Shown: positions 25,501 to 40,853, counted from the stretch's first letter. The stretch is DNA of 64,000 nt from an uncultured Trueperaceae bacterium (GCA_963815215.1 CAWFFU010000011.1:512001-576000); one strand, 5' to 3'. Notes: generated by a model from the sequence alone, not told the origin. Numbers and translations: made by a program.

Positions 25501-25920
25501 TCAACCGCTGCCGGACAGGAAGGCGCGCCAGCCCTCGAGCGGCTGTTCAGGGATCTCGCGGTAGTCGTTCTCGGGCGTGGCCGAGGAGAAGAAGCAGTAC
25601 AGCCTGAGCACGCCGGGGCCGGGGTTGACGGTGGCGTGCCGGGCGCCGGCAGGCATGATCCAGGCGTCCCCCTCGGTGACGCGGGCCCACGCCCCCTCCA
25701 CCCACAACGCCCCGCCCCCCCGCGCCACCACGATGATCTCCTCCATGCCTTCGTGGACGTGCGGCACGCGGGGGCTCGCTTCGTCCTGCGGCTCGATGTC
25801 GACGGTGCGGAACGAGCAGGACGAAGCGAAGCCGGTGCGGGCCGAGAACACCTCGCGCACCGAGCGGTTGGGGAGCCGGTAGGCCTCCACCGCGTCGATG
25901 GCGCGCACCGTCGCCTTCAT
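25501..25920 (-). CDS. Cupin domain protein
   Basis: 'PHVHEGMEE' and 'PAGARHATVN' cupin motifs; ATG after GGAGG. Confidence 0.88.
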   Translation of the reverse strand: MKATVRAIDAVEAYRLPNRSVREVFSARTGFASSCSFRTVDIEPQDEASPRVPHVHEGMEEIIVVARGGGALWVEGAWARVTEGDAWIMPAGARHATVNPGPGVLRLYCFFSSATPENDYREIPEQPLEGWRAFLSGSG

Positions 25921-25975
25921 GCCTCCCCCGCCGGCGTCCGCCGCAGCGGCCCGGCTGCCGCCCTCCGCCGGCGGC

Positions 25976-26755
25976 TCATGCGGGAGCATCCGGGAGCTCC
26001 GCCATGGCGGCGCTCGCCTCGCGCACGTCGGCGGCGATGCGATCGGCCACCCCCGCCACGACCCGCGCCGCCTTCTCGACGGTGGCGTGCTCGGGGGCGC
26101 CGTACCAGCCGGTCGCCGCGATCTGGCGGACATCGTGGAGCACGGGCCGCACGTTGGGGTTGCGGCGCACCGCGTCGATGCGCCGGCCCCGGCCGGGCGG
26201 CGACGAATTGGTGGCGCGCTCCACGTGCACCAGGCTCGGATCGAAGGCCAGCACCGGCAGCACCTCCAGCTCGCCGCCGTGGGTGAGCCCACCGGTCTCC
26301 TCGCCGTAGAGGTCGCGCGCCACGTAGCAGGCCTCGACCTTGAGGACCTCCAGCCCCAGCTCGTGGTGGATGCGGCTGGCCGCGACGCCGATGGCGTCGC
26401 TGTTACCCTCGTGCCAGTTGAGGATGACGACCCGTTCGGCGCCGTGCCTCGCCATGCTGTCGGCGATGTCCAGCATGAGCGCCACGAAGGTGTCGGGGCG
26501 GAGCGTCACGGTGCCGGCGAACCCCATGTGGAAGGGGGTGATGCCCATCGGGGCGAAGGGCACCACCAGCGCGCCCAGCCGCTCGGCGACGGCCCGCGCG
26601 AACACCAGAGCGGCGATCCAATCGGTGCCGCACGGCAGGTGCGGGCCGTGCTGCTCCACCGACCCGGTGGGGATGATCACCGTCCTGCTGCCCCGCAGAA
26701 GCGCCTCGGCCTCGGGCTGCGTGATGTCCATCAGGTCGTTGGGGTGGGGCGCCAC
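25976..26755 (-). CDS. Creatininase-family amidohydrolase
   Basis: 'GSVEQHGPHLPCGTD', 'HMGFAGT', 'NWHEGN', 'HGGELE'. Confidence 0.92.
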   Translation of the reverse strand: MAPHPNDLMDITQPEAEALLRGSRTVIIPTGSVEQHGPHLPCGTDWIAALVFARAVAERLGALVVPFAPMGITPFHMGFAGTVTLRPDTFVALMLDIADSMARHGAERVVILNWHEGNSDAIGVAASRIHHELGLEVLKVEACYVARDLYGEETGGLTHGGELEVLPVLAFDPSLVHVERATNSSPPGRGRRIDAVRRNPNVRPVLHDVRQIAATGWYGAPEHATVEKAARVVAGVADRIAADVREASAAMAELPDAPA

Positions 26756-26763
26756 GTTCGTCC

Positions 26764-27072
26764 TCAACCTTCCGCTGTGGCGTCGCCGGCAGGGTCCACC
26801 CTGCCGAGCAACGCCAGCACGTCGCTGGAGTTGTGCAAGATCTCGTCGGGGAACACGATGGTGATGGCGTTGGTGGGACACACGGACTCGCAGTGTCCGC
26901 AGTACCAGCACTCGTCCGGGAAGGCTACCACCGGCAGCGTCTCCCGGTCCCCCTCCTCCTTGTAGATGATGTCTCCGGGGCACACCCAGTCACACAACGT
27001 GCACCGCACGCAGGTGTTGGGATCGATCTGGATCGGGTTGTGCGCGCTCGCCGCGCCGTCACCGTGTGGCAT
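26764..27072 (-). CDS. 2x[4Fe-4S] ferredoxin (AprB-like)
   Basis: 'CVRCTLCDWVCP' and 'ECWYCGHCESVCP'. Confidence 0.93.
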   Translation of the reverse strand: MPHGDGAASAHNPIQIDPNTCVRCTLCDWVCPGDIIYKEEGDRETLPVVAFPDECWYCGHCESVCPTNAITIVFPDEILHNSSDVLALLGRVDPAGDATAEG

Positions 27073-27079
27073 GCCGCTC

Positions 27080-28804
27080 CTAACCTCCCTCTCCCGGCCG
27101 CCGCCGAGCGAACGCGGTGGACAGTGGCACCAGGGCCGACAGCGTGCTCACGCCCGGACCCTCGGCGGTCTGATCGACCAGCACGAACGAGCGCCAGTGC
27201 TCGTCGTCGGTGACCGGGAAGTCCATCCTGTGGTGGGCCGAGCCGGTCCGGCTCTCGCGGCGCTCGAGCGCGGCCTCGGTCAGCAGCTCGGCGTTGAGCC
27301 GGATGTTGCGCGCCTCGTGCACCCGCATCAAGGCGTGGTGGTGGGCCGCGCCGAGTGCGGTCTCCTCACGCCGCAACTCCTGCAGCGTGGCGAGCGCATG
27401 GCGCAGGCCCTTCTCGGTGCGGCGCACGCCGGCGTAGTCGGTCACGGTGTGGCGGATGCGTTCCTCGAAGGCCTGCCAGGAGGGGCCGCCGGGCTGCCGG
27501 AGGTGGACCGTCGCCTCCGCGATCAGCCCTTCCAGCTCGCCGGGATCGACGTCCGGCAGCGTGGCTCCCTCCTCGAGGTACTGCACGATGCTCTCCCCCG
27601 CGATGTGGCCCAGGGTGGCGGCCCCGGCGATCCCGCCACTGACCGTGGCGCTGTCGCCGGCGGAGAACAGGCCGCGCACCGACGACTCGGCGTTGGCGTC
27701 GACGGCGATGCCGCTGCCGCGGAAGTAGAGCCCGCTGCGGCGGATGCTGAGTTCGGAGATCGATACCTCGATGGGATCGGAACGGAAGTCGACGCCCTTC
27801 TGCCGATAGAACGCCGGCAGCGTGTGCCGGTCGATCTGCAGCGTCTCCTCCATGTGGTCGAGGACGTCGGCCGGAAGGTGGCGGCAGTCGAGGTAGATCG
27901 GGCCGTTGCCCTCCAGGTACTCGTTGATGACGCCGTCGGCAAGGACGGCGCGGCGCGCGTTCTCGCCCTTGGGATCGTAGCGGAACATGAAGCGCTCGCC
28001 CTGGCGGTTGAGGAAGTGGGCGCCCAGGCTGACGAGTGCGTTGAGCCCCTGGGTGGAGAAGCCCTTGGGCGTGAGCGTGGTCTCGGTGAACTCCATGTTG
28101 GCAAGGGTGGCGCCGGCGCGGTAGCCCATCGCCTGTGCGTCCCCGGTGTTGTAGGGGCAGTGCCAGCTGTCGAACGCCAACCCCGAGGCGTTCATCGACA
28201 GGCGGTTGACGTCGCCCGTCGAAAGCACCACGGCGCGCGCCCTGATGTAGTACCAGACGCCCGAGCGGATGTCGAAGGCCAGCACGCCGTAGGCGCGGCC
28301 GTCCTCCACCAGCACCTGGACACCCATGGTGCGGGCCAGCACGGTGGCCTTGCCCCGCCGCACACGCTGACCGATGTGGTGCTTGAAGCGGGTGCCGTCG
28401 AAGTTGATGTGGTACGCACCCGGCAGCCCGAACGAGCGGTGGCGGTCGTAGGTCCCGGTACGCGGATCGGTGAAGTCGACGCCCAGCGCCTCGAGCGTTC
28501 GCAACACGCGCGGCATCTCACGGACCACGCGATCGGTGACCTCCATGTCGACGATGCCGTCGGTCAGTTCGGGGATGTGCTTGAGGAGGAACTCGGGGGT
28601 GTCCCATTCGGGCCCCGTCTCCATGATCGTCAGATAGTGGTCGACGCCGCCGCCGACCGAGCCGCTTCGTTCGAGCAACTTGCCCTTGTCACAGATCACG
28701 ACCTCCAGCCCGGCCTCCAGCGCCGGGATCGCCGCCATGCAGCCGGCGACCCCACCACCGACCACGGCCACGTCGGTCTCGAGCCGGATCACCTCGTCGT
28801 TCAC
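27080..28804 (-). CDS. FAD-dependent oxidoreductase of the SdhA/FrdA/NadB/AprA superfamily (AprA-like)
   Basis: 'VVGGGVAG', 'LERSGS', 'PYNTGD', 'GLFSAGD', 'RRESR...HHRMDFP'; followed by a small ferredoxin and no membrane anchor. Confidence 0.88.
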   Translation of the reverse strand: MNDEVIRLETDVAVVGGGVAGCMAAIPALEAGLEVVICDKGKLLERSGSVGGGVDHYLTIMETGPEWDTPEFLLKHIPELTDGIVDMEVTDRVVREMPRVLRTLEALGVDFTDPRTGTYDRHRSFGLPGAYHINFDGTRFKHHIGQRVRRGKATVLARTMGVQVLVEDGRAYGVLAFDIRSGVWYYIRARAVVLSTGDVNRLSMNASGLAFDSWHCPYNTGDAQAMGYRAGATLANMEFTETTLTPKGFSTQGLNALVSLGAHFLNRQGERFMFRYDPKGENARRAVLADGVINEYLEGNGPIYLDCRHLPADVLDHMEETLQIDRHTLPAFYRQKGVDFRSDPIEVSISELSIRRSGLYFRGSGIAVDANAESSVRGLFSAGDSATVSGGIAGAATLGHIAGESIVQYLEEGATLPDVDPGELEGLIAEATVHLRQPGGPSWQAFEERIRHTVTDYAGVRRTEKGLRHALATLQELRREETALGAAHHHALMRVHEARNIRLNAELLTEAALERRESRTGSAHHRMDFPVTDDEHWRSFVLVDQTAEGPGVSTLSALVPLSTAFARRRPGEGG

Positions 28805-28832
28805 GGCAAGCCTCCTTCAGGGCGATGCACCC

Positions 28833-29954
28833 TCATCCGTCGTACCGCAGGATCTCGATGCCTGCGCCCCCCCGGTCGCTGGTGAACGTCAGGCCGTCCG
28901 CCTGGACGAACACGTCGTTGGTCTGCGGGTGGACGCCCCCCTTGGAGGGAGGGACGTGGCTGGCCACCTCGACCGGCGCGCGGGGGTCGGAGCAGTCGTA
29001 CGCCCGCACGCCCGCGCTGAAGTAGGTCACGAAGATCAGCGTCTCGCTCGAGAACGCGCCGGGACGGTTCTCGTGCAGGTTGTGCGGCCCGAAGCGGGGC
29101 CCGTGCGTGCGCACGGGCCCGTCGGGCTCGGGGAACGTCGAGAGCTCCCTGGGGTGGCTCTCGTCCCGGATGTCGAAGACCCGCACGAGCCGCGGTGTGG
29201 CGTCGGTCTCGGGCGTGGACTTGGCCTCGTCGGTCACCACCAGCAGATCGCGGCCGGGCAGCGGCATGGCGGTGTGGGTGTGGCCGCCGCGCTCGGGCGC
29301 CCACAGCGCCGAGCCGACCACCGTCGGCCGGCTCGGATCGCGGATGTCGAGGATGCGCAACCCACCGTCCCACACGCCAACGTAGGCGCGCTCTCCATGG
29401 ACGATCGCGTGGTGGAGCTTGGGGTTGATGGTGTCGGGCCAGGCGGGTACCTCGCCACCGGCCTCCCATTGGCCCGGCAGCCACCAGCGGCCGGTCTCAC
29501 GGGGGCACGTCGGATCCGCGACGTCCACGATCAACAGCATGCGATCGCGGAAGCCCGGGGCGACGGCCGACAGGTAGACGGTGGGCTCGAGCCCGTCGAT
29601 CCACATCCTGTGCACGCCCCGGCCGCCGGTGTCGTAGAACGACACCTCGCGAGGCCGCGCGGGATCGCTCAGGTCGAAGATCCCGAAGCCGGTACGCGCG
29701 GCCCGTTCCCCGGCACGCCACTCGTAGTTGACGAAGAGCAGGTCGTGAACGATCTGCACCTTCGGGGACATGGTGTTGGCGTAGCCGGGCAGGAAGCCCG
29801 TGAGGACGGGCGCGCGCGGGTCGGACACGTCCAACACCGCAGTCCCGACTCCAGGTTCCATATTGCCGACGTAGAGGTGCCGACCGTGCGACATGAGCTG
29901 CATGGTGCTGCCCTTGCCGCCGAGATCGTGGTGACCGAGGAGTTCGAAGCCCAT
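28833..29954 (-). CDS. LVIVD-repeat beta-propeller protein (putative His-rich metallohydrolase)
   Basis: Repeated 'xDxSDPxxP' blades; 'GVHRMW', 'LHH', 'HTHTA', 'VTDE', 'RFGPHN'. Confidence 0.88.
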   Translation of the reverse strand: MGFELLGHHDLGGKGSTMQLMSHGRHLYVGNMEPGVGTAVLDVSDPRAPVLTGFLPGYANTMSPKVQIVHDLLFVNYEWRAGERAARTGFGIFDLSDPARPREVSFYDTGGRGVHRMWIDGLEPTVYLSAVAPGFRDRMLLIVDVADPTCPRETGRWWLPGQWEAGGEVPAWPDTINPKLHHAIVHGERAYVGVWDGGLRILDIRDPSRPTVVGSALWAPERGGHTHTAMPLPGRDLLVVTDEAKSTPETDATPRLVRVFDIRDESHPRELSTFPEPDGPVRTHGPRFGPHNLHENRPGAFSSETLIFVTYFSAGVRAYDCSDPRAPVEVASHVPPSKGGVHPQTNDVFVQADGLTFTSDRGGAGIEILRYDG

Positions 29955-29967
29955 CGAGATCCCTAAC

Positions 29968-30987
29968 CTACTGAATGGCGGCGACCGCCTGCTTGAGGAC
30001 CGGCACGATGCTCTGACCGGCCGCGGCGATCTGTTCGACCTTCGGCTGCTCCTCGGCGCCCTGCATGGGCACGATGATGAGGCCCTGCTTCTTGGCGTCG
30101 GCCAGCAGGCCGGGATCGTGGAGCGCCGCCCACACGGCCGAGCGCATGGCGCTCACGGCGGCCTCGGGCATGCCGGGAGGTCCGAAGAAGCTCCGGTGCA
30201 TGGTGATCATGTTGACGATCGCCTGGACCAGGGTCTTGTCCTGGCCCTGCGTGACCTCGACGGCGGTGGGCACGTTCGGGTAGCCCGCCTCGCGGGCGTC
30301 GCCGATAATCAGGATCGGGCGCAGGTCGCCCGCCTGGATACCTGCCAGCGAGGAGTGCCAGGCCGTGATGTGACCGTCTCCCTCGCCCTTGATGACGGCC
30401 AGGGTGGTGTCGGCGTTGCCCTGGTAGCCGGTGACGGCCTTGAGCTCGAAGTTCAGGGCCTTGGCCAGCACCGCCATGGTGTAGAAGTCCTCGTCGGTAC
30501 CCTGGGTCGGGAAGACGAAGGGGCGGCCCAGGTTCTGGACGTCCTGGATGCTCTTGATCTTCGACTTGCCTCCCACCACCAGCACACGCGCCTCGGTGGC
30601 TGCGCGCCCCAGGTAGATGAACTTGGTGGCGTCGAACTCGACGCCCTTGCTGCCGGAGAGCTGCGCCAGTACCAGTGCCGGCACGCTCGTGAAGGCGATC
30701 GTCATGCCATCAGGCTTGGCGTGCCACAGGTAGTTGGCACCCACCACGCCGCCGGCGCCCTGCATGTTCTTGACGCGCACGTCGGCTGCGCCGAGGTGCT
30801 TGGCGATGTAGGGGGCGATCATGCGGGCGTACTGCGTCATCTGGCCGCTGGGGCTGTTGGGCAGGATCAGGGTGACCGTCTTGCCCTTGTAGTAGTCCGA
30901 GCCGCTCTGGGCCATCGTCATGCCGCCGAAGAGCGCGAGGGCGGCGATCAGCCCAGTCAGGATGTTGAAGCGTGCCTTCCGTCCCAC
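29968..30987 (-). CDS. Tripartite tricarboxylate transporter substrate-binding protein (TctC/Bug)
   Basis: Signal peptide; 'YYKGKTVTLI', 'NMQGAGGVVGAN', 'AKPDGMTI', 'VTGYQG', 'PPGMP'. Confidence 0.9.
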   Translation of the reverse strand: MGRKARFNILTGLIAALALFGGMTMAQSGSDYYKGKTVTLILPNSPSGQMTQYARMIAPYIAKHLGAADVRVKNMQGAGGVVGANYLWHAKPDGMTIAFTSVPALVLAQLSGSKGVEFDATKFIYLGRAATEARVLVVGGKSKIKSIQDVQNLGRPFVFPTQGTDEDFYTMAVLAKALNFELKAVTGYQGNADTTLAVIKGEGDGHITAWHSSLAGIQAGDLRPILIIGDAREAGYPNVPTAVEVTQGQDKTLVQAIVNMITMHRSFFGPPGMPEAAVSAMRSAVWAALHDPGLLADAKKQGLIIVPMQGAEEQPKVEQIAAAGQSIVPVLKQAVAAIQ

Positions 30988-31065: not shown

Positions 31066-31599
31066 TCAGAACGGTCCCGGCAGGATGCCGTAGTACATCT
31101 GGGTGTTCAGCAGCACGACGAAGAGCAGGTAGAGCGCCCCACTCACGCCGAATGAGAGGGCCAGCACGCTGTACCAGCGCAGCCGCCCGATGACGGCCGC
31201 GTAGCCGAACACGAACAGGAAGATGCCCGTGATGGGGCCGAGCAGCAGCACCAGGCCCAGCAGGATCCCCAGCAACACGAAGGCGACGACCTCGCGGCGG
31301 GCCCGCGTGCCGGGTGGGTGGGCGGTGGCGACGCTCGCCCGCGACGCCCGTGCCTTGTCCGTCAGGCCCTCGCGCGCGCTGCGCCGCGTCAACATCTCCA
31401 GCACGTCGACGTGCAGATCGTCGGGCGAGCCGGTGTTCTGCACCACGAGTTGGGCGATCACCAGGATCAGCGAGAACACCGCCACGGGCACGGGCACCAG
31501 CCGCGAGCGCGGGCCATAGCTCATGCTGACGACGATGACAGCGACCAAGATGCCGGCCAGCACGATGGCGAGGACGTTCTCCTGGGCACGGCGGCTCAC
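31066..31599 (-). CDS. Tripartite tricarboxylate transporter small membrane subunit TctB
   Basis: GTG overlapping the tctA stop; 4-5 TM helices; lies between tctA and tctC. Confidence 0.85.
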   Translation of the reverse strand: MSRRAQENVLAIVLAGILVAVIVVSMSYGPRSRLVPVPVAVFSLILVIAQLVVQNTGSPDDLHVDVLEMLTRRSAREGLTDKARASRASVATAHPPGTRARREVVAFVLLGILLGLVLLLGPITGIFLFVFGYAAVIGRLRWYSVLALSFGVSGALYLLFVVLLNTQMYYGILPGPF

Positions 31600-33098
31600 G
31601 GCTCCCTCGCTTCCGCGGCCGCCCGCCGGCGCGCCAGGCGCCGACGCACGATCGGGAACGCGGTCGTGAACAGGATGAACAGGAACATGGCCAGCGTGAC
31701 GGGACGCGTGAAGATGAAGGTGGCGCCGTAGAGCGTCAGCGAGATGTGCAGGTCGCGCTCGATCATGGTGGCGAGCACCATGCCGATGACGAAGTCGGCG
31801 CGCGAGTAGTTGTACTTGTCCATGACGTAGCCGACCACCCCGAAGATGGCGGCGACCGCCACGTCGCCGATGCGTCCGTGGGTGGCGTAGGCCCCCATGA
31901 AGCACACCGCCAGCACCGTCGGCACCAGGTAGCGCGACGGCAGCTTGGCCGAGCGCGCCAGCGTCCGGGCGCTCAGCAGCCCGATCACCGTGGTGAGGAT
32001 GTTGGCGATCACGATGATCCACACCATGGTGAAGACCAGGCTCAGGTTGGTGGTGAGCATCTGGCGGCCCGGCGTGATGCCCATGTTGATGAACGCGGCC
32101 AGCAGGATGGCCATGCTCTCGCCACCGGGGATGCCGAAGGCCAGGGTGGGGAGCAGGCCGCCGCCTTCGGTGGCGGCCAGCGTGGCGTCCGGCCCGATGA
32201 CGCCCTCGACCGCACCGTGACCGAAGCGCTCGGGATGCTTCGAGGTCTGGGCGGCCTGCGCGTAGGCGGCGATGCCGCCGACGCTGGCGCCCACCCCCGG
32301 CAGCACGCCGATCCACAGCCCGAGCAGGCTGGAGCGCACCACCAGCCACCAGTGGCGGAAGGTGTCCTGGACGCCGTCCCACACGGTGCTCGACTCAGTG
32401 TCGACCTGCGCCTCCACCACCGAACCGCCCTTGACGAACAGCTTCAACATCTGTGACACCGCGAACAGCCCGATCATCGCCACCGGGAACGAGATGCCGT
32501 CGAGCAAGAAGAGGTTGCCGAAGGTGTAGCGGGCGGTGCCGGTGATGGGGTCCATGCCGATGAAGGCGACCAGGATGCCGAGGCCGGCGGCGATGAGCCC
32601 CTTCACCACCGAGCCCTCGCTGAAGGTGGCGATGATGGTCAGGCCCCAGAGCGCCATCATGAAGTACTCGCTGGGGCCGAGCGCCAGCATGAGCGGCCTT
32701 ACGACGGGGATGGTGGCGACCAGGAAGACCGCGCCGATGACGCCGCCGAGGAGTGCGGCCATGGCCGAAGCGCCCAGCGCCCGCGCGCCCTCGCCGCGCT
32801 GCGTCATCGGATAGCCGTCGAAGACGCTGGTGATGGTCTTGGCGGCCCCCGGCACGTTGAACAAGATGCCGGTGATGGAACCGCCCCAGACGGTGGCCGC
32901 GTGGGCTCCGAGGAGCAAAGCCAATGCGGCCGCCGGCTGGAATCCGAAGGTGAAGGGCAGCACCAGCGCCATCGCGACGATCCCGCCCAGGCCGGGCAAC
33001 ACGCCGATGACGAGCCCGTAGATCACGCCCACGACCATGAACAGGATCGATTGCGGCGTGAACAGCGCCAACAGTCCGGTCACGGCGGCGGTAATCAC
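31596..33098 (-). CDS. Tripartite tricarboxylate transporter large permease TctA
   Basis: 'IGVLPGLG', 'GILFNVPG', 'DGYPM', 'PTLAFGIPG'. Confidence 0.93.
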   Translation of the reverse strand: MITAAVTGLLALFTPQSILFMVVGVIYGLVIGVLPGLGGIVAMALVLPFTFGFQPAAALALLLGAHAATVWGGSITGILFNVPGAAKTITSVFDGYPMTQRGEGARALGASAMAALLGGVIGAVFLVATIPVVRPLMLALGPSEYFMMALWGLTIIATFSEGSVVKGLIAAGLGILVAFIGMDPITGTARYTFGNLFLLDGISFPVAMIGLFAVSQMLKLFVKGGSVVEAQVDTESSTVWDGVQDTFRHWWLVVRSSLLGLWIGVLPGVGASVGGIAAYAQAAQTSKHPERFGHGAVEGVIGPDATLAATEGGGLLPTLAFGIPGGESMAILLAAFINMGITPGRQMLTTNLSLVFTMVWIIVIANILTTVIGLLSARTLARSAKLPSRYLVPTVLAVCFMGAYATHGRIGDVAVAAIFGVVGYVMDKYNYSRADFVIGMVLATMIERDLHISLTLYGATFIFTRPVTLAMFLFILFTTAFPIVRRRLARRRAAAEAREP

Positions 33099-33113
33099 TC
33101 CCAGCGCTCCCTT

Positions 33114-34175
33114 CTAGCCCAGAAGCTCGGCGACGTCGACCATCCTGCCCTCGCGGCTCGAGCGGACCGCGGCCAGCATCACCGCGACGTTGCGGGTCGC
33201 CACCTGGGCATCGACCTCGGCGGCGGTCTCGCCGCGCACCGTCCGCGCGAACTCCTCCACCTCGTCGCGCAGGTGGTCGACGCGCGGCACCTCCACCGCG
33301 ACATCGGTGAGCTCGAAGTCGTCGGGATCGTCGGTGGCGCGCGCGAAAGCCCGCTTGGTCAAGGTCGAATGTTCGTCGGTCACGTCCGAGTTGCTCCACC
33401 AACTGAAGTCGAGCTGGTAGAACAGGTCGCCCGTGGTGCCGTAGACGTTGATGGAGAAGACGCCGGGACAGGCCCAGTTCGTCCCCAGGTAAGCCATCTG
33501 GCCGCTCTCGAACTCCAGCAGCGTGACGTTGACGGTGTCGTTCTCGACCCGGGTGTACATGGGCTTGCCGAAGGTGGCGACGCGCCTCACCGGGCCGAGC
33601 AGGTACTGCAGGTTGTCGATCTGGTGGATGCCGAGCTGCGTCAGCGGCCCGCCAGGAGCCTTCTCGGGATCGCCGCGCCAGTTCCCGGGCTCGATCTGCA
33701 GGCCGCGCTCGTTGGCGAACACCGCCTCGATGACCGAGACGTCTCCGATCTCGCCCGCGTCCATCAGCGCCTTGATCTTCCGCAGGCCGCCCAGGCGCCG
33801 GGCGGAGTGCCCGCAGCTGAACACCACGCCCGCAGCCGCCACCGCACGCTCGATGCGGCGTGCGTCGACGAGCGAGACCGCGATGGGCTTCTCCACGAAG
33901 GCGTGCTTGCCGGCCGCCGCCGCCTGCTCGATGACGTCGGCGTGATGGTCGTTCGGTACCGTCACCACCACGCCCTCGATATCGTCGCGCGCCAGCAGCG
34001 CTTCGAGGCTGGCATCCTGAGCGCAGCCGTAGCGATCCGCGAAGGCGTCGCGCTTGCCCTGCGAGCGGCTGAAACAGCTCACCAGCTCGACCTCGCCGCT
34101 GCGGGTGTAGGCGTCCGCCAGCACGTTGGCCCAGCGCCCCAGCCCCACGGCGGCCACGCGCACGGGCCGGCTCAT
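33114..34175 (-). CDS. Gfo/Idh/MocA family NAD(P)-dependent oxidoreductase
   Basis: 'VGLGRW', 'VPNDHH', 'GKHAFVEKPIA', 'GIHQID'. Confidence 0.92.
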   Translation of the reverse strand: MSRPVRVAAVGLGRWANVLADAYTRSGEVELVSCFSRSQGKRDAFADRYGCAQDASLEALLARDDIEGVVVTVPNDHHADVIEQAAAAGKHAFVEKPIAVSLVDARRIERAVAAAGVVFSCGHSARRLGGLRKIKALMDAGEIGDVSVIEAVFANERGLQIEPGNWRGDPEKAPGGPLTQLGIHQIDNLQYLLGPVRRVATFGKPMYTRVENDTVNVTLLEFESGQMAYLGTNWACPGVFSINVYGTTGDLFYQLDFSWWSNSDVTDEHSTLTKRAFARATDDPDDFELTDVAVEVPRVDHLRDEVEEFARTVRGETAAEVDAQVATRNVAVMLAAVRSSREGRMVDVAELLG

Positions 34176-34215: not shown

Positions 34216-35370
34216 TCACGCGCTCCGGTAGAGCTTGGTGAGCACGAACTCGCGATGCCCGAGGGCTTCGGCGCAGGTGCGGCGGCCGCGGACGGTCCGC
34301 TCCACCACCGTCATGAGCTGCTCGCCCGCGCCTTCCACGTCGATCTCCCGGCGCAGCAGCCCGCTGACGTCGAGGTCGATGTGCTCGGTCATGGTCCCGG
34401 CGGTGATGGGATTGCCCGTCAGCTTGATCACCGGCTCGATGGGGTTGCCCACGATGTTGCCCTGGCCGGTCGGGAACAGGTGGATCACGGCGCCGGCGGC
34501 CGCCATGAGGGTGATGCACTCGGCGGCCGCCGAGGAGGTGTCCATGAAGTTCAGGCCCTTGCGACTCGGCGCCACGGCCGGCTCGAGCACGTCGACCACC
34601 GGCTTGGTGCCGGTCTTCTCGATGTTGCCGAGCGCCTTCTCCTCGATGGTGCTGAGGCCCCCACGGATGTTGCCCTGGGTGGGTTGCGAGCCCATCAGAT
34701 CGGCGTCCTGCTCGTCGATCATTCGGATGTAGGCGTCGTAGGTCTCCTGGAAGCGCCGGCGCACATCGTCGTCGACGCAGCGCTCGGCGATGAGGTGCTC
34801 GCCGCCGGTGAGTTCGGACGTCTCGCCGAACAGCACCGTACCGCCCGCCTCGACCACCTTGTCGACCACCTGCGCCACCGTGGGGCACGATGCCAGACCG
34901 GTGGTGGTATCGCTCTCGCCGCACTTGATGCTGAGCGTGATCTCGCCCAGCTCGATCGGCTCGCGGGGGATCTCGCCGGCCTCCTGGACGAAGCGCTGCG
35001 CGGCGCGCGCCGCGACCTTGATGGTCTCCAGGTCACCGTGGCGTTCGATGGAGAAACCCTGCACCGGGGTGCCCTGCGCGCGGATGCCCTCGACGACGAG
35101 CTCGGTCCAGTTGGGCTCGATGCCGATCACGATGGCCGCGGCCACGTTCGGGTTGGAGCCGGTGCCGATCAAGGTCCGGAAATGGAGCTCCAGGTCCTCG
35201 CCGAACTGCAACCGTCCGTACGGGTGCGGGATGGCCAGCGCTTCGGGAACGAGCCGCGCCACCCCTTCGGCGGCTGCGTTGGAGATGTCGTCGACGGGGA
35301 TGACGACCACGTGGTTGCGGATGCCGACGCGGCCGTTGGCCCGCCTGTAGCCGGTGAGTTCCGATGCCAT
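34216..35370 (-). CDS. suyB: (2R)-sulfolactate sulfo-lyase beta subunit (UxaA family)
   Basis: '[21 protein letters not shown]', '[30 protein letters not shown]', '[11 protein letters not shown]', ending 'LTKLYRSA' match SuyB as I recall it. Confidence 0.85.
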
Positions 35371-35383
35371 GGTGCTCCCTCTC

Positions 35384-35662
35384 CTACCAGCGCGCCGAAC
35401 GGATGTTGTGGGTGTGGACGTAGTCGCCGACCTCGATGTCGCCCGTGGCGATGCCGACGCGCGTGCCGTACTCGGTGACCTCGTCGCCGCGCTTCAAGGC
35501 GCGGACGGCGATCTTGTGGCTGAGCGGAACCGCGCCGCGCGCGGTGATACCGACCTCGCCGCCGGTATCCATGAAGATGCCGACGATCGCGTCACCGACG
35601 TCGATGTCTTCGGTTGCGACCCCGACGTCGTCGCCTTCGTTATGGACCAGGAACTTGTGGAT
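35384..35662 (-). CDS. suyA: Sulfolactate sulfo-lyase alpha subunit (SAF domain); start codon uncertain (probably ATC)
   Basis: '[13 protein letters not shown]', 'VPLSHKIA', '[11 protein letters not shown]'; directly upstream of suyB. Confidence 0.85.
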
Positions 35663-35748
35663 GGCGGACCACCTCCCCTGTGGGCGCCGAGTCGGCCCCA
35701 CATGGTCCGGGCGCCTCAGGAGCCCGGCCGCTTGATTGCGATGGCGCC

Positions 35749-35778
35749 ATTCTAGGGGGCGGCTCCCATCAATGTCAA
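35749..35778 (-). promoter_or_regulatory. Sigma70-type promoter of the suyAB operon
   Basis: TTGACA (35778-35773), 18-nt spacer, TAGAAT (35754-35749). Confidence 0.8.
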
Positions 35779-35802
35779 TTTTCAATTTTCTGTCGAAAAT
35801 TG
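35773..35802. promoter_or_regulatory. Putative GntR operator 1
   Basis: Minus-strand CAGAAAATTGAAAATTGACA (35792-35773) plus inverted repeat CAATTTTC-N4-GAAAATTG (35783-35802). Confidence 0.7.
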
Positions 35803-35819
35803 GCGACACACGAAGCCAC

Positions 35820-35847
35820 GGCCCCGCACCCTGCTACGGGCGGGGCC
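35820..35847 (-). terminator. GC-rich hairpin after the gntR operon, possible terminator
   Basis: GGCCCCGC...GCGGGGCC 8-bp stem, 5 nt past the stop at 35853; no clear U-tract. Confidence 0.4.
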
Positions 35848-35852
35848 GGCGT

Positions 35853-36074
35853 CTACTCCCGCAGCGCCGCGTCGGCTGCCGGCGTCACGCCGGCGAGATC
35901 GCGCCCACACCAGGGGCAGTAGCGCACCGTCACGCGCTGCTGACGGGCCGGGACGCCCGGCGGCACGCTCGTCAGCACCCACGATCGGCTACGCGAGCTA
36001 TAGAAGACGAGGCCCTCGATCTGCCCCGTCTCGGGTCGACAGACGTGGCTCGAGCCGCGAACATCATCGCTCAT
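35853..36074 (-). CDS. Small hypothetical protein with HxC...YCPWCG motif
   Basis: ATG 3 nt after the upstream stop, SD-like GAGG; CxxC motif. Confidence 0.6.
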   Translation of the reverse strand: MSDDVRGSSHVCRPETGQIEGLVFYSSRSRSWVLTSVPPGVPARQQRVTVRYCPWCGRDLAGVTPAADAALRE

Positions 36075-36077
36075 GCC

Positions 36078-37067
36078 TCACCCCCCGACGGGCACGGCAA
36101 CGGGATGGAGCGCGGCCTCGCCACGCAGGCAGCGCGCCACCTCTTCGGCGGCCAGCCTGCGCATGCGCACCTGCGCTTGCTCGGAGTACCAGGCCATGTG
36201 CGGCGTCACCAGCACCGAACGGTGGCTCCGCAGCGCGTCGTCTGCCGCAGGCGGCTCGCCCTCGGTCACGTCCAGGCCCGCGCCCGCCAGCCGGCCGCTG
36301 TCGATAGCGCGAAGCAACGCGGCCTCGTCGATCAGGCCGCCACGACTGACGTTGACCACGAACGCCCCCGCCGGGAGGAGCGCCAGCTCTCGCTCGCCCA
36401 GCAGATGGTGCGTGGCGTCACTCAGGGGCAGGTGCAGGGACACCACCTGAGCGTCCGCCAGCACCTCCTCCAGCGAGCCGCGCAACTCGAGCGCACCGCC
36501 GGTCGGGTCGGAGGTCACGAACGGATCGAAGCCCGTGAGCCGGAACCCCAGTCCCTTCAAGAACTCGGCCGCGCGGCGGCCGATGCGTCCTAGACCGAGC
36601 ACCGCCACGGTGGTCGCCTCGGGGGCCGCGATGGGCCGCACCTCGGCGACCCCCCAGCCGCCCGCACGCACGTGGGCGGCGGCCGTCTCGATCTTGCGTG
36701 TGAGCGCCAGGATCAGCGTCACGGCATGCAACGCCACCTCGTCGGTGCAGTAGTCGAGCACGTTGCATACCGCCACGCCCATCTCGGCTGCGGCCCCGAC
36801 ATCGATGCGGTCGACGCCGATGCCGTAGCGCACCAGCGCCGTCGTGCCACGCATCTCGGCCAGCACCGCACGCGTGAAGCGGGGCGCCGAACCCGCCAGG
36901 ACCGCGGCGGCACCACGGCAACTGTCGATGAGGGCGGCCTCGTCGTCCCCGGGGGCTCGGACCACCTCGACTCCGAGCGGGGCGAGCACGCGTTCCTCGA
37001 TGTCGAGTGGGTCGAATCGTGCGCCGCACACCACGACGCGGCGCGGCCCGGAGGCGGCCTCCGTCAT
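36078..37067 (-). CDS. D-isomer-specific 2-hydroxyacid dehydrogenase (CtBP-like)
   Basis: 'RYGIGVDRID', 'DYCTDEVA', 'GLGRIG', 'VNVSRGGLIDE', 'TPHMAWYS'. Confidence 0.93.
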   Translation of the reverse strand: MTEAASGPRRVVVCGARFDPLDIEERVLAPLGVEVVRAPGDDEAALIDSCRGAAAVLAGSAPRFTRAVLAEMRGTTALVRYGIGVDRIDVGAAAEMGVAVCNVLDYCTDEVALHAVTLILALTRKIETAAAHVRAGGWGVAEVRPIAAPEATTVAVLGLGRIGRRAAEFLKGLGFRLTGFDPFVTSDPTGGALELRGSLEEVLADAQVVSLHLPLSDATHHLLGERELALLPAGAFVVNVSRGGLIDEAALLRAIDSGRLAGAGLDVTEGEPPAADDALRSHRSVLVTPHMAWYSEQAQVRMRRLAAEEVARCLRGEAALHPVAVPVGG

Positions 37068-37137
37068 CGATGGGCGGCCGTGCCGGGCATCCCACGGCGC
37101 GACGGGCGGAAACGGATCAGCATGGGGTGCGACGTCT

Positions 37138-37857
37138 TCATGAAGTTACCTCCGTCTTGCCGTTGGTGGTGGGAAGCGTGAGTTGCGAACCGAGGTGCGC
37201 CAGCAGCGCCGAACCGGCGTTGCGGACGTGCTCGCGCATGGCGGCTTCCGCCGGACCGACGCGTCCGCGCGCCACATGCGCCAGGATGCGGTCGTGCTCG
37301 GCCATGGACGAGGGTAGGCGCCCCTCGACCTCGGCGGAGGTACCGATCAACAGGCGGACTTGCCCCATCAACATCTCCGACATCTTCAGCAGTCGATCGT
37401 TGCCCGATGCCTCCCACACCGTTCGGTGGAAGGCGACATCGAGATCGGCGTAGCGCGCCAGGTCGCCCTGGTCACAACACTCCACCTGCTCCTCGTGGAG
37501 CTCGCGCAGAGCGGTCGCCAGCACCTCGGGGTGCGCCTCGACCGCGAGCCGCATCGCCAGCCCTTCCAGCACCGCGCGCAAAGTGTAGATGTCGACGATG
37601 TCGGCAGGCTCCAGGGTGATGACGTAGTACCCGCGATGCGGCCGAGACTCCACCAGGCCCTCGCGCTCCAACGCGGCGAGAGCCTGGTTGATCGGGGTGG
37701 GCGAGAGCTCGAGCTGCTCGACCAGGTCCCGCATCACCAGCTTGCTCCCGGCGGGCAGGGTCCGCGTAAGGATGCCCTCGCGCAGCGCGTCGTAGGCCTG
37801 GCGCGACAGAACATCGCGCTCTGGAACGTGCAGTTTGCCGATCATCGGCTTCCCCAT
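37138..37857 (-). CDS. GntR family transcriptional regulator (FCD domain)
   Basis: 'AYDALREGI', 'LSPTPINQALAALEREGLV', 'DVAFH', 'EHDRI', 'MREHV'. Confidence 0.95.
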   Translation of the reverse strand: MGKPMIGKLHVPERDVLSRQAYDALREGILTRTLPAGSKLVMRDLVEQLELSPTPINQALAALEREGLVESRPHRGYYVITLEPADIVDIYTLRAVLEGLAMRLAVEAHPEVLATALRELHEEQVECCDQGDLARYADLDVAFHRTVWEASGNDRLLKMSEMLMGQVRLLIGTSAEVEGRLPSSMAEHDRILAHVARGRVGPAEAAMREHVRNAGSALLAHLGSQLTLPTTNGKTEVTS

Positions 37858-37866
37858 GATGAGAAG

Positions 37867-37875
37867 ACTATAGCA
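37867..37875 (-). promoter_or_regulatory. Extended -10 (TGC-TATAGT) of gntR, near-leaderless
   Basis: TATAGT ends 9 nt before ATG 37857; no SD. Confidence 0.55.
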
Positions 37876-37899
37876 GAAAATTGAAAATTGACAATTGTC
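37874..37899. promoter_or_regulatory. Putative GntR operator 2
   Basis: CAGAAAATTGAAAATTGACA (37874-37893), identical to operator 1, extended by the palindrome GACAATTGTC (37890-37899). Confidence 0.7.
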
Positions 37900-37916
37900 C
37901 CGGCGCGACCTAGAAT
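37888..37916 (+). promoter_or_regulatory. Sigma70-type promoter of the NitT/TauT ABC operon
   Basis: TTGACA (37888-37893), 17-nt spacer, TAGAAT (37911-37916). Confidence 0.82.
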
Positions 37917-38063
37917 TGCCGAATCGACAATCCCATGCCTAGCACGCGCACGTGCGCCGCCCATTACCGGGCGCCGTAGCGCCGGGAGGTGGCTCATTCA
38001 AGGGTTCCTCGTTCTTTCCAGGGTTGCACGCAGCACGGGTCGTGCCCGAGCGCGCGTCCGGCC

Positions 38064-38849
38064 GTGACCGTCTCCACCCCAGTGAGGCAGGCCAAGGCCG
38101 CAGCCTCCAACATCTCCAAGTGGTACGGCGACCTCGAGGTGCTCCACGACATCAATCTGGAGATCTACCAGCATGAGTTCCTGTGCCTCCTCGGCCCCAG
38201 CGGCTGCGGCAAGACCACCCTGTTGCGCATCCTCGACGGCCTGATCCAGCCCGACGAGGGCAACGTGACCATCGACGGTGAGGTCATCCACGGCCCCCCG
38301 CGACAGGCTGCCATGGTCTTCCAGCAGTTCGGCCTCTTCCCCTGGAAGACGGTGAGTCAGAACGTGGCCTTCCCGATGGTTCTCGCCGGCGTGCCCAAAG
38401 CGCAGATCGAGGAGAAGGCGCAAGCGGCCATCGATCTCGTCGGCCTGAAGGGGTTCGCGGATTCCTTCCCCGACAACCTCTCGGGCGGCATGAGGCAACG
38501 CGTCGGCATCGCCCGCGCGCTCGCGGTAGGCCCGGAAGTCCTGCTCATGGACGAGCCCTTCGCTTCCGTCGACGCCTACACGCGCGAGCTGCTCCAGGGG
38601 GAGCTGTTGTCGATCTGGGAGCGCTTCCGGCAGACGGTCGTGTTCGTCACGCACAGCATCGACGAGGCCATCACGTTGGCCGATCGCATCGTGGTCATGA
38701 AGGCCAGGCCGGGCGAGGTGTACCACGTCTTCGACGTGCCCATCGACCGCCCGCGTACGGTCAACAGCGTGCGCCAGCACCCAGCCTACGAGCCGCTGCG
38801 CGAGACCATCTGGAACGACATGCTCAAGGGCAGCGGGAGGGTCGAGTGA
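38064..38849 (+). CDS. NitT/TauT (SsuB/TauB-like) ABC ATP-binding protein
   Basis: 'GPSGCGKTT', 'VFQQFGLFPWKTV', 'LSGGMRQRV', 'VTHSIDEA'. Start uncertain (37989 or 38064). Confidence 0.93.
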   Translation: MTVSTPVRQAKAAASNISKWYGDLEVLHDINLEIYQHEFLCLLGPSGCGKTTLLRILDGLIQPDEGNVTIDGEVIHGPPRQAAMVFQQFGLFPWKTVSQNVAFPMVLAGVPKAQIEEKAQAAIDLVGLKGFADSFPDNLSGGMRQRVGIARALAVGPEVLLMDEPFASVDAYTRELLQGELLSIWERFRQTVVFVTHSIDEAITLADRIVVMKARPGEVYHVFDVPIDRPRTVNSVRQHPAYEPLRETIWNDMLKGSGRVE

Positions 38850-39691
38850 TGGACGTAGGACACCGCCGTGCCGACGAGCGCACCGCGTTGCGCGAGCGCG
38901 TCAAGGAACGCCGGCGCCAGACCGAACGCCGCAAGCGGAACCGCTACCTCCTCATCCGCGCGCTGTCGTTCGTAGTGGTGCTCGGTGCCTGGCAGATCTA
39001 CGGCAACAACAGCCTCGAGATCATCTTCACGCCCTTCACCACGGTCGTCGCCCATCTCTTCGAGCTGCTCGTCTCGGGACCGCTGGCCGGCGCCATCGCC
39101 TACAGCCTGTCGATGTTCTTCGGCGGCCTGGTGATCGGCAGCATCATCGGCGTCACGTTGGGCGTGGCAATGGGCCGCTTCGCGATGTTCGAGGCCGCCC
39201 TCGGCATGTACGTCTACGCCATCTACTCCACCCCTCTGGTGGCGTTGATCCCGCTGATCTCGCTGTGGTTCGGCTTCGGCGTGCAGGCTCAGCTCATCAT
39301 CATCTCGATGTTCGTGTTGTTCCCCATCACCATCGCCGTCTACAACGGCGTGCGTAGCGTGGACCCCTCCCTGATCGAGGTCGCCCGCTCGTTCCGCGCC
39401 AACGAGATGGCGATGTGGCGCCACGTCATCATCCCCAGCGTCGTCCCCTACATCGTCACCGGCCTCAGTCAGGGGGTGGCCATGGGCCTGGTGGGCATGT
39501 TCATCTCCGAGATCTACACCGCGCTGTCGGGCATGGGGCAGATCCTGGCCTTCTCGGCCAACGCCTACAAGACGGCCGACATGCTGGCCGTGCTCCTGAC
39601 GGTGATGATCCTGGGGGTCACCTTCCGGACCGTCATCGAGGAGCTCCGCAAGCGTCTTGCGCCCTGGTTCAACAAGGAGTCCGGGCGTTGA
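38849..39691 (+). CDS. NitT/TauT (SsuC/TauC-like) ABC permease
   Basis: 'PLVALIPLISLWFG', 'GVRSVDPSLIEVARSF'. Confidence 0.92.
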   Translation: MDVGHRRADERTALRERVKERRRQTERRKRNRYLLIRALSFVVVLGAWQIYGNNSLEIIFTPFTTVVAHLFELLVSGPLAGAIAYSLSMFFGGLVIGSIIGVTLGVAMGRFAMFEAALGMYVYAIYSTPLVALIPLISLWFGFGVQAQLIIISMFVLFPITIAVYNGVRSVDPSLIEVARSFRANEMAMWRHVIIPSVVPYIVTGLSQGVAMGLVGMFISEIYTALSGMGQILAFSANAYKTADMLAVLLTVMILGVTFRTVIEELRKRLAPWFNKESGR

Positions 39692-39776
39692 GCCCGACCC
39701 CTCGGGGCAGACGAACCGATCGGTGTCACCGGGACGGACCGTGTCCGCTCCCGTGCACAGCAAAGGGAGGCAGCAG

Positions 39777-40853
39777 ATGAGCAGGTCGATCAACGGATGG
39801 TTCACGAGCAGGCCGCTGGCAGCGGTCGCGGCGGCCCTGGTCGTCGCAGCGCTGCTGGCCGGCACAGCCAGTGCTCAAGGCTCGAACGACTGGCCCAATG
39901 TCACCGCTTCCACCGCCTGGGGGACCATCGGCGCCACGGTAGCCGTGTCGCCTCCCAAGGCCGTGTTCCTGGTGCCCTTCATCGCGCAGGCCGAAGGCTT
40001 CTTCGATCGTGAGCACCTTCACGTCAAGCTGGTCCCCGAGACCAGCGGCGTTCCGGCGTTCCTGAGCACGGTGGCGGGCTCGACCAAGTTCTCGTTCACG
40101 TCGGCCACCGACCCGATCATCGCGGCCTCGCACGGCCAAGCGGCCCACGTGATCTGGTCGTACGGGCTGAAGCTCGACACCGTGTGCATCGGTGGTGACG
40201 GCATCAAGACCGCCAAGGATCTGGTCGGCAAGAACGTCGGCGTCACGGACACCGGCGGTTTCGCACAGACGTTGCTGCAGGCCTGCCTGGCGCCCGCCGG
40301 CGTGTCGCTCGACAGCGTCCACATGATCCACATGCAGCGCTCCGGCTTCGTGCCGGCGATGGTCAGTCACCGCATCTCCGCCGCCGTTTTCCACGCCGAC
40401 GGCGCCTACGTGGTGCTGCAGAAGGACCCCGGTGTGACGGCGCTGGCCTACGAGTACGAGGCCATCCCCGACTGGTGGTACGGCGCGCTGGCCGCCAACG
40501 ACGCCTACGTCAAGGCCAATCCCGGTGAGGTCAAGCGCTTCCTTCGGGCGCTGGTGCTCGCCAGCCGCTGGATGTACGACCCGGCCAACAAGGCCAAGGT
40601 CATCGCCGACGGCGCCAAGGCCAGCGGTGAAGACCCCGCCGCCATCGAGTACGCCTACAACCTGATGATCAAGGGCCACATCTGGCCGTTGAACGCCGGT
40701 CTGCCGACGCAGCAGTCGTACATGTACACGGCCCAGAAGCTCAAGGACTTCGGCGAGATCGACACCATCCCCAGCTACGAACAGACGATCGACGCTTCGT
40801 ACGTCGACGCCGTCCTGCAGAATGTCGGGAAGGTCGACCCCTCCAAGTACTGA
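39777..40853 (+). CDS. NitT/TauT (SsuA/NMT1-like) substrate-binding protein
   Basis: SD GGGAGG; signal peptide; 'IAQAEGFF', 'DLVGKNVGV', 'VKRFLRAL'. Confidence 0.88.
   Translation: MSRSINGWFTSRPLAAVAAALVVAALLAGTASAQGSNDWPNVTASTAWGTIGATVAVSPPKAVFLVPFIAQAEGFFDREHLHVKLVPETSGVPAFLSTVAGSTKFSFTSATDPIIAASHGQAAHVIWSYGLKLDTVCIGGDGIKTAKDLVGKNVGVTDTGGFAQTLLQACLAPAGVSLDSVHMIHMQRSGFVPAMVSHRISAAVFHADGAYVVLQKDPGVTALAYEYEAIPDWWYGALAANDAYVKANPGEVKRFLRALVLASRWMYDPANKAKVIADGAKASGEDPAAIEYAYNLMIKGHIWPLNAGLPTQQSYMYTAQKLKDFGEIDTIPSYEQTIDASYVDAVLQNVGKVDPSKY

Follow-up and report, generated by a model that had tools for sequence, protein, structure and literature searches.

A gene cluster of an uncultured Trueperaceae bacterium that probably funnels an organosulfonate through an orphan upstream pathway into SuyAB

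The gene cluster described here occupies positions 25,501 to 40,853 of a 64,000-nucleotide stretch of DNA (hereafter the window) from an uncultured Trueperaceae bacterium (GCA_963815215.1 CAWFFU010000011.1:512001-576000). It encodes both subunits of the sulfo-lyase SuyAB together with a set of further enzymes, two importers and a GntR regulator, and it seems likely that it degrades an organosulfonate to sulfolactate and then to sulfite, i.e. that an orphan upstream pathway funnels a sulfonate into SuyAB as the last step. From suyA to a cupin gene, the minus strand forms one run with intergenic gaps of less than 80 nt; gntR and the genes of a D-2-hydroxyacid dehydrogenase and a small Cys protein lie on the same strand upstream of this run, and an ATP-binding cassette (ABC) importer is encoded divergently on the plus strand. 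All genes listed in a preliminary description of this DNA are present in the place, strand and order given there, with the start positions of the cupin (25920) and creatininase-fold (26755) genes corrected. The genome is 97% complete and 3.3 Mb in size, and the nearest homologues carry Deinococcales or Trueperaceae labels.

Identity of the SuyAB pair

Sequence comparisons support the UxaA-family pair as the orthologue of SuyAB:

34216-35370, minus strand: suyB, (R)-sulfolactate sulfo-lyase beta subunit (GD_AH_second and GD_AH_C domains; assigned on identity, tree, residues and JGI homologue labels)
35384-35662, minus strand: suyA, SAF-domain alpha subunit behind a strong Shine-Dalgarno sequence, with a putative ATC start

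In a tree of 32 rows, the cluster SuyBs and the reference SuyBs (from Cupriavidus pinatubonensis, P. versutus, S. mexicanum and Rhodococcus) form one 24-row clade (support 100/100, stem 1.12), outside which fall GarD, altronate dehydratase, three fused proteins and two split pairs from sugar contexts, the functions of these outgroups being those given by annotation or gene context. The orthology proposed in the preliminary description is thereby borne out, as SuyB groups with the references and apart from the sugar-acid dehydratases. A Halorubrum pair is a long-branch sister of the clade, its placement being unsure, and the cluster SuyBs form no clade of their own, sharing an unresolved fork with the references. 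The residues point the same way: of the 155 columns that are invariant in seven reference SuyBs, 125 are also invariant in 17 cluster SuyBs and three are replaced (two conservatively), while D27, D28, R53, W88, E152, H297, Q303 and N305 are invariant in the 24 SuyB rows and absent from seven outgroups. Three cysteines conserved in the sugar-acid members are missing from cluster SuyB, an absence that has been reported for SuyAB (PMC6336799; cited papers are used here, and below, for their accessible passages). A function as sugar-acid dehydratase was rejected on the tree, the SuyB residue pattern and the cysteine pattern. The split SAF plus GD_AH architecture is present as well, but is undiagnostic alone, as split pairs also exist in sugar clusters.

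It is very improbable that this SuyAB-clade enzyme eliminates another leaving group from a 3-substituted lactate (e.g. methanesulfinate from a sulfone, the substrate then being an oxidised thioether). Beta-elimination chemistry would presumably permit this, and the ABC binding protein of the cluster is only 23% identical to that of a Paracoccus hps cluster, whereas the replacement of only three reference-invariant columns, two of them conservatively, and the lack of a separate clade argue against it.

SuyB is 60% identical to a UxaA-family gene (and SuyA 33% to the SuyA) of a C. pinatubonensis plasmid cluster (locus L073), whose order (LacI, hpsN, hpsO, major facilitator superfamily transporter, Zn-dehydrogenase, UxaA, UxaA) matches hpsRNOUPsuyAB (PMC11382572); this reference is strain HN-2 with the hpsRNOUP-suyAB order, and not the assayed strain itself. 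A Rhodococcus gene whose neighbours encode aldehyde, hydroxyacid and Ldh dehydrogenases shares 72% identity with SuyB, genes in three genomes from another family of the same order (G047, G051 and G059) share 61-63%, and identity drops to at most 42% among further plasmid matches. In other genera of the family, ~900-aa open frames (L013-L020) contain a distant UxaA-like domain (24-31%) that falls outside the SuyB clade.

Core enzymes and their conservation

Four further genes make up the core of the cluster:

25501-25920, minus strand: metal cupin (HxH..E..H; Pfam Cupin_2), candidate tautomerase, ring opener or epimerase
25976-26755, minus strand: creatininase-fold binuclear metal hydrolase (Pfam PF02633) of a separate NWHEGN subfamily
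33114-34175, minus strand: Gfo/Idh/MocA NAD(P) dehydrogenase, hereafter Gfo (PDB 3db2 match)
36078-37067, minus strand: D-2-hydroxyacid dehydrogenase (Pfam), probably not the SlcC orthologue

Gfo matches PDB 3db2, a 'putative NADPH-dependent oxidoreductase', at 525 bits; the next match scores 78 bits, and matches from there down are largely sugar and cyclitol dehydrogenases. Going by names only, no sulfoquinovosidase structure (GH188, SqgA) is among the best 60 of its 81 PDB matches. The creatininase-fold protein (model pLDDT, i.e. predicted local distance difference test, 92.5) matches creatininase structures and keeps the fold and metal ligands of the family, with R194, R195 and R207 invariant. 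Its NCBIfam scores (creatininase 94 bits against a cut-off of 235, MftE 94 against 172, IolN 51 against 245) place it outside all named equivalogs, and a scan of 301 genomes of the phylum found its subfamily in six, each belonging to this genus. The cupin, in which R14, R33, R46, H49, H51, E56 and H90 are conserved (numbering of the query as cut), has weak PDB matches to KdgF (E 0.0012) and DddK (E 0.009). The dehydrogenase is 31-34% identical to context-defined SlcC-like proteins, compared to 45-50% for another gene of the genome (C11:629.6 kb), and a role as the SlcC of an SlcC/ComC racemase was rejected as improbable. Conserved Arg and Lys residues in Gfo, the creatininase-fold protein, the cupin and a flavoprotein described below are compatible with anionic substrates, none of which they specify.

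The preliminary description had placed the upstream set in one regulon, and the set is conserved well beyond the genus: neighbourhoods of Gfo and of the flavoprotein share the core in at least five bacterial phyla and in haloarchaea, in aerobes as well as in a strictly anaerobic family. Anchoring a scan on Gfo gave 41 loci, of which 35 were examined after six Trueperaceae-like ones had been set aside. The 27 loci with a Gfo of at least 52% identity, which span Actinomycetota, Chloroflexota, Gemmatimonadota, Bacillota and Halorubrum, contain creatininase (25), cupin (24), suyB (23, one being the Halorubrum gene of 35%), the ABC binding protein (22), an LVIVD propeller (nine) and the flavoprotein (two); the eight with a distant Gfo (25-36%) contain no creatininase, cupin or suyB. 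An independent, flavoprotein-anchored scan gave 61 metagenome loci, and in the 27 of at least 9 kb that were counted (two of them Trueperaceae-like) ferredoxin was found in 27, creatininase in 24, Gfo in 23, the dehydrogenase in 18, cupin in 16, TctA in 15, suyAB in nine and LVIVD in four. Pooling yields 52 outside loci of at least 9 kb, 47 of them with a Gfo orthologue, which is accompanied by creatininase in 44, the dehydrogenase in 39, cupin in 38, suyB in 29, the flavoprotein in 24 and LVIVD in 13.

The anaerobic family is that of Desulfosporosinus fructosivorans, presumably strictly anaerobic and sulfite-respiring, in which four of 69 genomes carry Gfo; because such a family has the gene set, the pathway is probably oxygen-independent. 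Use of sulfolactate has been described for Desulfitobacterium hafniense (PMC12890257). One same-strand run in G077 holds suyAB, creatininase, cupin, dehydrogenase, flavoprotein, ferredoxin, tctABC, LVIVD and Gfo, with extra genes for an isopropylmalate-synthase-like protein, an aldehyde:ferredoxin oxidoreductase, a CoA ligase, a GntR and an alanine dehydrogenase. The Halorubrum locus also encodes a PF03601 exporter and PntAB, both of which are present in the Paracoccus suyAB cluster too, and PntAB is found in the Cupriavidus cluster as well. In Haloarcula ordinaria ZS-22-S1 the core genes are scattered across a plasmid region, with no suyAB match in the DNA fetched. Fumarylacetoacetate hydrolase (FAH) family genes adjoin cluster genes in this genus and in both haloarchaea (35-40% in the haloarchaeal versions), and no aminotransferase emerged among the conserved neighbours examined.

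Several variants were seen alongside. A third cluster type, mostly without adjacent suyAB (L112, L117, L122, L128, L133 and L134), combines a threonine-synthase-family gene, a dehydrogenase, a PhnS-like ABC importer, flavoprotein, ferredoxin, creatininase, Gfo and cupin, with a flavin mononucleotide alpha-hydroxyacid dehydrogenase in three loci. Bacillota loci (L176, L178, L043 and L044) carry an isopropylmalate/homocitrate-synthase-like gene and, variably, aldehyde:ferredoxin oxidoreductase and ADP-forming CoA ligase, from which the co-product may show. Directly 3' of suyB in D. fructosivorans (L179:520-1815, G062) lies a LarA lactate-racemase-family gene, a candidate one-enzyme sulfolactate racemase that would replace SlcC/ComC.

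Proposed entry modules and accessory genes

The remaining genes of the cluster are the following:

26764-27072, minus strand: 2x[4Fe-4S] ferredoxin, flavoprotein partner (Pfam Fer4)
27080-28804, minus strand: accessory flavoprotein of the AprA/SdhA superfamily, from a subfamily yet to be characterised, in a proposed entry module (FAD_binding_2 and Succ_DH_flav_C)
28833-29954, minus strand: LVIVD beta-propeller, probable metal-dependent hydrolase (candidate lactonase/esterase), semi-core (Pfam PF08309)
29968-30987, minus strand: tctC (Pfam)
31066-31599, minus strand: tctB (Pfam)
31596-33098, minus strand: tctA (Pfam)
35853-36074, minus strand: 73-aa Cys protein, accessory (DUF6980-like lead from Atlas feature matches)
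38064-40853, plus strand: SsuABC/TauABC-like ABC importer (ATPase 38064-38849, permease 38846-39691, NMT1/SsuA-like binding protein 39777-40853)

The flavoprotein has the alpha subunit of 3'-phosphoadenosine 5'-phosphosulfate (PAPS) reductase as best PDB match (8a8o, 170 bits), stays below every NCBIfam cut-off listed (TIGR02061 for aprA, 95 against 642; PRK08275, 333 against 587), and belongs to a family whose metagenome members are ~70% identical. In an alignment it has Thr at the position of AprA Arg265 and Tyr at the His398 equivalent, both of which we take to be catalytic in AprA, and ATP sulfurylase (Sat, PF01747) was not found in the genome. A role as adenosine 5'-phosphosulfate (APS) reductase, or in sulfite oxidation via APS, was rejected on these three counts.

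The LVIVD protein is probably a propeller-type metal-dependent hydrolase, judging from its model (pLDDT 93.3), of which the best fold match is a Sphingobium phosphotriesterase (5hrm, E 1e-15; next unrelated propeller 3e-8), and from its invariant H115, H181, H227, E243, H291 and E295. An Atlas search with this propeller returned LVIVD clusters only. The ABC binding protein scores highest with SsuA_fam, though its 76.7 bits fall short of the cut-off (163.5), and both it and TctC have only distant PDB matches that give no clue to the ligand. The small Cys protein, which had been counted as part of a unit with gntR and the dehydrogenase, falls outside the conserved core: it is 69-79% identical in congeners (Atlas feature matches of 0.93-0.94 to hypothetical and DUF6980 clusters), but absent from G002 and from the 35 outside loci of the Gfo-anchored scan.

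SuyB was found in eight of nine congeners, and eight regions from seven genomes were compared. G003 and G007 have the full gene order, G004 has the minus-strand run up to the contig end with many frameshifts, and G005 ends at a contig edge. Lost from G002 are tctABC, flavoprotein, ferredoxin and the Cys gene, and from G001 tctABC and ferredoxin, with a 52-residue flavoprotein stub left; in G009 a TctA stub is fused to the creatininase gene. The tripartite tricarboxylate transporter (TTT)-flavoprotein-ferredoxin module is thus dispensable, having been deleted in three congeners, in two of which stubs are left. Of the earlier proposal, the undescribed upstream set and the shared promoter control are supported, with the amendment that AprA-like protein, ferredoxin and TTT are a dispensable part. 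The frameshifts in G004 (L022), which run across the cluster genes, are possibly assembly errors rather than decay. Three further genes lie next to the cluster in congeners, and at 22500-25405 in the window. They encode a YncE-like propeller, whose N-terminus is twin-arginine-like and whose tail is rich in Cys, as well as a membrane protein and a hydrolase of the FAH family.

Beyond the genus, the binding-protein orthologue occurs in 21 of the 23 loci without flavoprotein and in none of the 24 with it, while a TctC orthologue occurs in ten of those 24 and in none of the 23. In five of five flavoprotein-free genomes tested, no flavoprotein orthologue was found elsewhere in the genome either. 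This pattern is suggestive of two entry modules, an SsuA-type ABC importer without and TctC with the flavoprotein, both of which are present in this window. Rather than one sulfonate being imported by two transporter classes, as first proposed, it is probable that two related compounds are taken up, the binding protein and TctC never having been found in one locus outside the genus.

Promoters, leaders and translation starts

The regulatory features are:

35749-35792, minus strand: suyA operon promoter with the shared 20-nt element, TTGACA-18 nt-TAGAAT (sequence pattern)
37138-37857, minus strand: GntR/FCD regulator (Pfam GntR and FCD)
37867-37916, both strands: overlapping divergent promoters of gntR (minus) and the ABC genes (plus), holding the second element copy
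37996-38067, plus strand: predicted 23-codon ATH-started upstream open reading frame (ORF) resembling the suyA start, its stop overlapping the ATPase start

The 20-nt word, which was found by direct search and is not among the top families of a repeat search, has only two copies in the 3.3-Mb genome at up to four mismatches (35773-35792 and 37874-37893), one pointing to suyA and one to the ABC ATPase gene. Each ends in TTGACA, followed after 17-18 nt by TAGAAT (11/12 consensus matches), and promoter-like sites of this kind number four in 16 kb, compared to 1.1 +/- 1.0 in shuffles. With both copies kept in the window and in five of five other loci tested, the shared promoter element of the preliminary description is upheld. 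The leaders behind the copies are alike too (their alignment score was reached by 0/300 shuffles in five of six loci and by 4/300 in G007), in a comparison that includes the common Shine-Dalgarno and start region. The element may thus be a duplicated promoter plus leader, probably with the GntR operator within it. The GntR is 55-57% identical to the one divergent from suyAB in G047, G051 and G059.

The best-supported start of suyA is the ATC at 35662, which would mean translation from AUH codons. In the window and seven related loci, a GGAGGTG Shine-Dalgarno sequence is followed after 7 nt by ATC, ATA or ATT beginning IHKF, and no credible canonical start was found, the in-frame GTGs further upstream in some loci being unconserved. 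A genome scan for strong Shine-Dalgarno sequences gave 175 canonical starts and five non-canonical candidates, including suyA. The ATH-started 23-codon ORF in the ABC leader is open, of equal length and overlaps the ATPase start with its stop in six of six loci. Conserved AUH starts at suyA and at a paralogous upstream ORF before the ATPase could reflect translational tuning left by promoter duplication. The leader RNA folds are no more stable than shuffles (z -1.2 and -0.3) and give no support to a riboswitch or attenuator.

The shared operon and promoter also bear on whether suyAB is merely a co-located, independent module for free (R)-sulfolactate, with the core degrading a non-sulfonate such as a sugar acid, cyclitol or N-heterocycle, which is decidedly unlikely. 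Such independence would fit the absence of suyB from 18/47 Gfo loci and 18/27 flavoprotein loci, and the divergent orientation of suyAB relative to the rest in Actinomycetota and Chloroflexota. However, suyAB and the core share operon and promoter here, their linkage persists in at least five phyla and four different gene orders, and a SuyB of 58-72% lies elsewhere in four of four bacterial genomes with a suyB-less locus (the Halorubrum genome having only its 36% gene).

Genome context

That hps, sulfo-EMP (sulfo-Embden-Meyerhof-Parnas), TauE and sulfite-oxidase genes are missing from the window, as the preliminary description had it, agrees with the listed matches (the best three for queries with multiple hits), which are all outside. 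Genes of these types do occur elsewhere in the genome, among them six TauE matches above cut-off and two molybdenum sulfite-oxidase-family genes. At ~52-67 kb beyond the window (L076:15364-18571 and L077:6098-10649), genes for CuyA and CuyB, both scoring above their NCBIfam cut-offs, and for an SlcC-like protein are found near a sulfo-EMP2-like set with a second Gfo gene. Since sulfoquinovose thus seems to have its own route in this genome, the cluster is argued to serve another substrate. ComC (Ldh_2) was not found in the 97%-complete genome, nor in three of five other core genomes, and it is therefore probable that (R)-sulfolactate is made directly.

Proposed pathway and alternatives

It is proposed that a GntR-controlled, probably oxygen-independent pathway cuts a larger organosulfonate so as to release its C3 sulfonate unit as (R)-sulfolactate, which passes to SuyAB. 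For the steps leading there, oxidation, tautomerisation and hydrolytic C-C cleavage are favoured, though only tentatively. A precursor A would enter by the TTT and be converted to compound B in a two-electron step by flavoprotein and ferredoxin, while B (a polyhydroxy, sugar-acid- or cyclitol-like sulfonate) could also enter by the SsuA-type ABC importer and go straight to the core. Gfo would oxidise one hydroxyl of B, the LVIVD protein would open a lactone or ester where formed, and the cupin would tautomerise the product to a beta-dicarbonyl. An IolN-like retro-Claisen C-C hydrolysis by the creatininase-fold enzyme would then free (R)-sulfolactate, which SuyAB would split into pyruvate and sulfite, and the D-hydroxyacid dehydrogenase would process the other fragment and re-oxidise NADH. 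We infer sulfolactate as the product, the two entry compounds and the step order. This chemistry is favoured because each of the four core enzymes would then act in sequence, in redox balance and without oxygen, and it is in line with the sugar/cyclitol relatives of Gfo, the weak cupin-KdgF match, the presence of IolN in the hydrolase family, the FAH neighbours and the lack of an aminotransferase.

Several observations weigh against the proposal. The creatininase-fold protein scores 51 bits for IolN but 94 bits for each of two C-N hydrolases, creatininase and MftE, an alanine dehydrogenase after the run in G077 and G074 hints at ammonium release, the ABC binding protein is under the SsuA_fam cut-off, and 18 of 47 loci have no suyB in the DNA that was fetched. 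The split between transporters and flavoprotein is not an independent statistic, because of related lineages, two anchored samples and truncated contigs. Finally, D-gluco sulfosugars lead to (S)-sulfolactate, which needs SlcC/ComC (PMC12421959, PMC13436972); with no ComC found, the substrate should therefore be L-configured, or the cupin or Gfo inverts the centre.

The reading of the preliminary description, an amide-containing or cyclic substrate, is a close competitor, though somewhat less probable. The same funnel to SuyAB would then take a sulfonate that contains nitrogen (amide, lactam, cyclic amidine or N-acyl amino-sulfosugar), the creatininase-fold enzyme would hydrolyse a C-N bond, and the flavoprotein would serve as amine dehydrogenase or ring reductase. 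The hydrolase has its best NCBIfam matches, and its sole PDB fold matches, among C-N hydrolases, the flavoprotein superfamily includes L-aspartate oxidase, and the binding protein is NMT1/THI5-like with a formylaminopyrimidine-binding protein as second PDB match; the alanine dehydrogenase in G077 and G074 would also fit. However, Gfo and cupin then have no evident place in the order of steps, neither an aminotransferase nor an amine oxidase emerged among the conserved neighbours in flavoprotein-free loci, and the Halorubrum locus has Gfo, cupin, dehydrogenase and a FAH hydrolase without a creatininase match within 10 kb.

Within the C-C-cleavage scheme, a more specific version is unlikely, namely that the substrate is a widespread organosulfur redox pair. 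The AprA-fold flavoprotein would then be, for example, an organosulfinate dehydrogenase acting via a flavin N5 adduct, turning the TTT-imported A into sulfonate B, from which the creatininase-fold C-C hydrolase route would make (R)-sulfolactate without oxygen, racemase or aldolase. If true, this would be a fifth, mechanistically distinct SuyAB feed for aerobes and sulfite respirers.

Significance and comparison with known systems

Among the pools of organic sulfur, that of organosulfonates is a major one, and new routes usually come to light through unknown genes beside a known sulfo-lyase, as for the cysteinolate pathway (PMC12814064). The cluster appears undescribed, as proposed at the outset: literature searches, with most subscription journals and supplements outside their coverage, gave no description of it and no characterised pathway that it matches, and the passages on SuyAB feeds in PMC9594981, PMC11382572, PMC12421959, PMC13436972, PMC13372026 and PMC12814064 have hps, SlcC/ComC or sulfoglycolytic genes and omit this gene set, as does that on asf in PMC4267179. 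It would imply a natural substrate so far unlinked to SuyAB and up to five new enzyme activities, i.e. a missing link in the sulfur cycle. Cultured carriers are available in D. fructosivorans 63.6F and H. ordinaria ZS-22-S1 (core genes), and 3db2 is a structure of a Gfo homologue.

The hpsRNOUP-suyAB system for 2,3-dihydroxypropanesulfonate in C. pinatubonensis (PMC11382572) shares the SuyAB end step, a local regulator, an importer and the formation of (R)-sulfolactate without ComC. The present cluster lacks HpsN, HpsO, HpsP and HpsU, the best HpsN match in the genome (34%) being on another contig, and has instead Gfo, creatininase-fold hydrolase, cupin, D-hydroxyacid dehydrogenase, LVIVD, and flavoprotein with ferredoxin.

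In the SlcC/ComC-SuyAB system, SlcHFG is presumably the TTT importer. This system of Chromohalobacter salexigens and Paracoccus (PMC9594981, PMC12421959) has SuyAB, a D-2-hydroxyacid dehydrogenase and a TTT transporter in common with the cluster. The latter differs in that ComC is missing from cluster and genome, the dehydrogenase is probably not the SlcC orthologue, and TctC tracks the flavoprotein rather than suyB.

Tandem sulfoglycolysis or sulfofucolysis with SuyAB (sulfo-transaldolase, sulfo-EMP2 and sulfofucolytic Entner-Doudoroff routes) likewise converts a larger sulfonate to a C3 unit for SuyAB, but by isomerase, kinase, aldolase, transaldolase and dehydratase genes that the cluster lacks. 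The clusters of G047, G051 and G059 are of that type. In these (L027-L029), gntR is divergent from suyAB, accompanied by SlcC-like, ComC-like, sugar ABC, SftI-like isomerase, PfkB and LacD-like genes; the ComC-, sulfoquinovose-isomerase-, kinase- and aldolase-like calls are all below or near generic cut-offs, and together these genes, from a different family of the order, probably form an operon that is complete for the mineralisation of sulfoquinovose.

The flavoprotein is ~31% identical to PRK08275-type plasmid proteins, which we take to be AsfA. Both asfRABC (PMC4267179) and AprAB share with the cluster an AprA-fold flavoprotein plus ferredoxin by a transporter in a sulfonate context, whereas the cluster has no SsuD monooxygenase and a GntR in place of LysR. 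Sulfur scavenging of the asf/ssu type was rejected, with PRK08275 below its cut-off and no monooxygenase or LysR in the cluster.

Thermotoga degrades inositol through IolG, IolM and IolN, the last being named 3-dehydro-scyllo-inosose hydrolase (NCBIfam NF041098). The favoured model parallels this route in its dehydrogenation followed by ring or C-C hydrolysis on a creatininase fold. It differs in that the hydrolase is no IolN (51 bits against a cut-off of 245) and that the present cluster ends in a sulfo-lyase.

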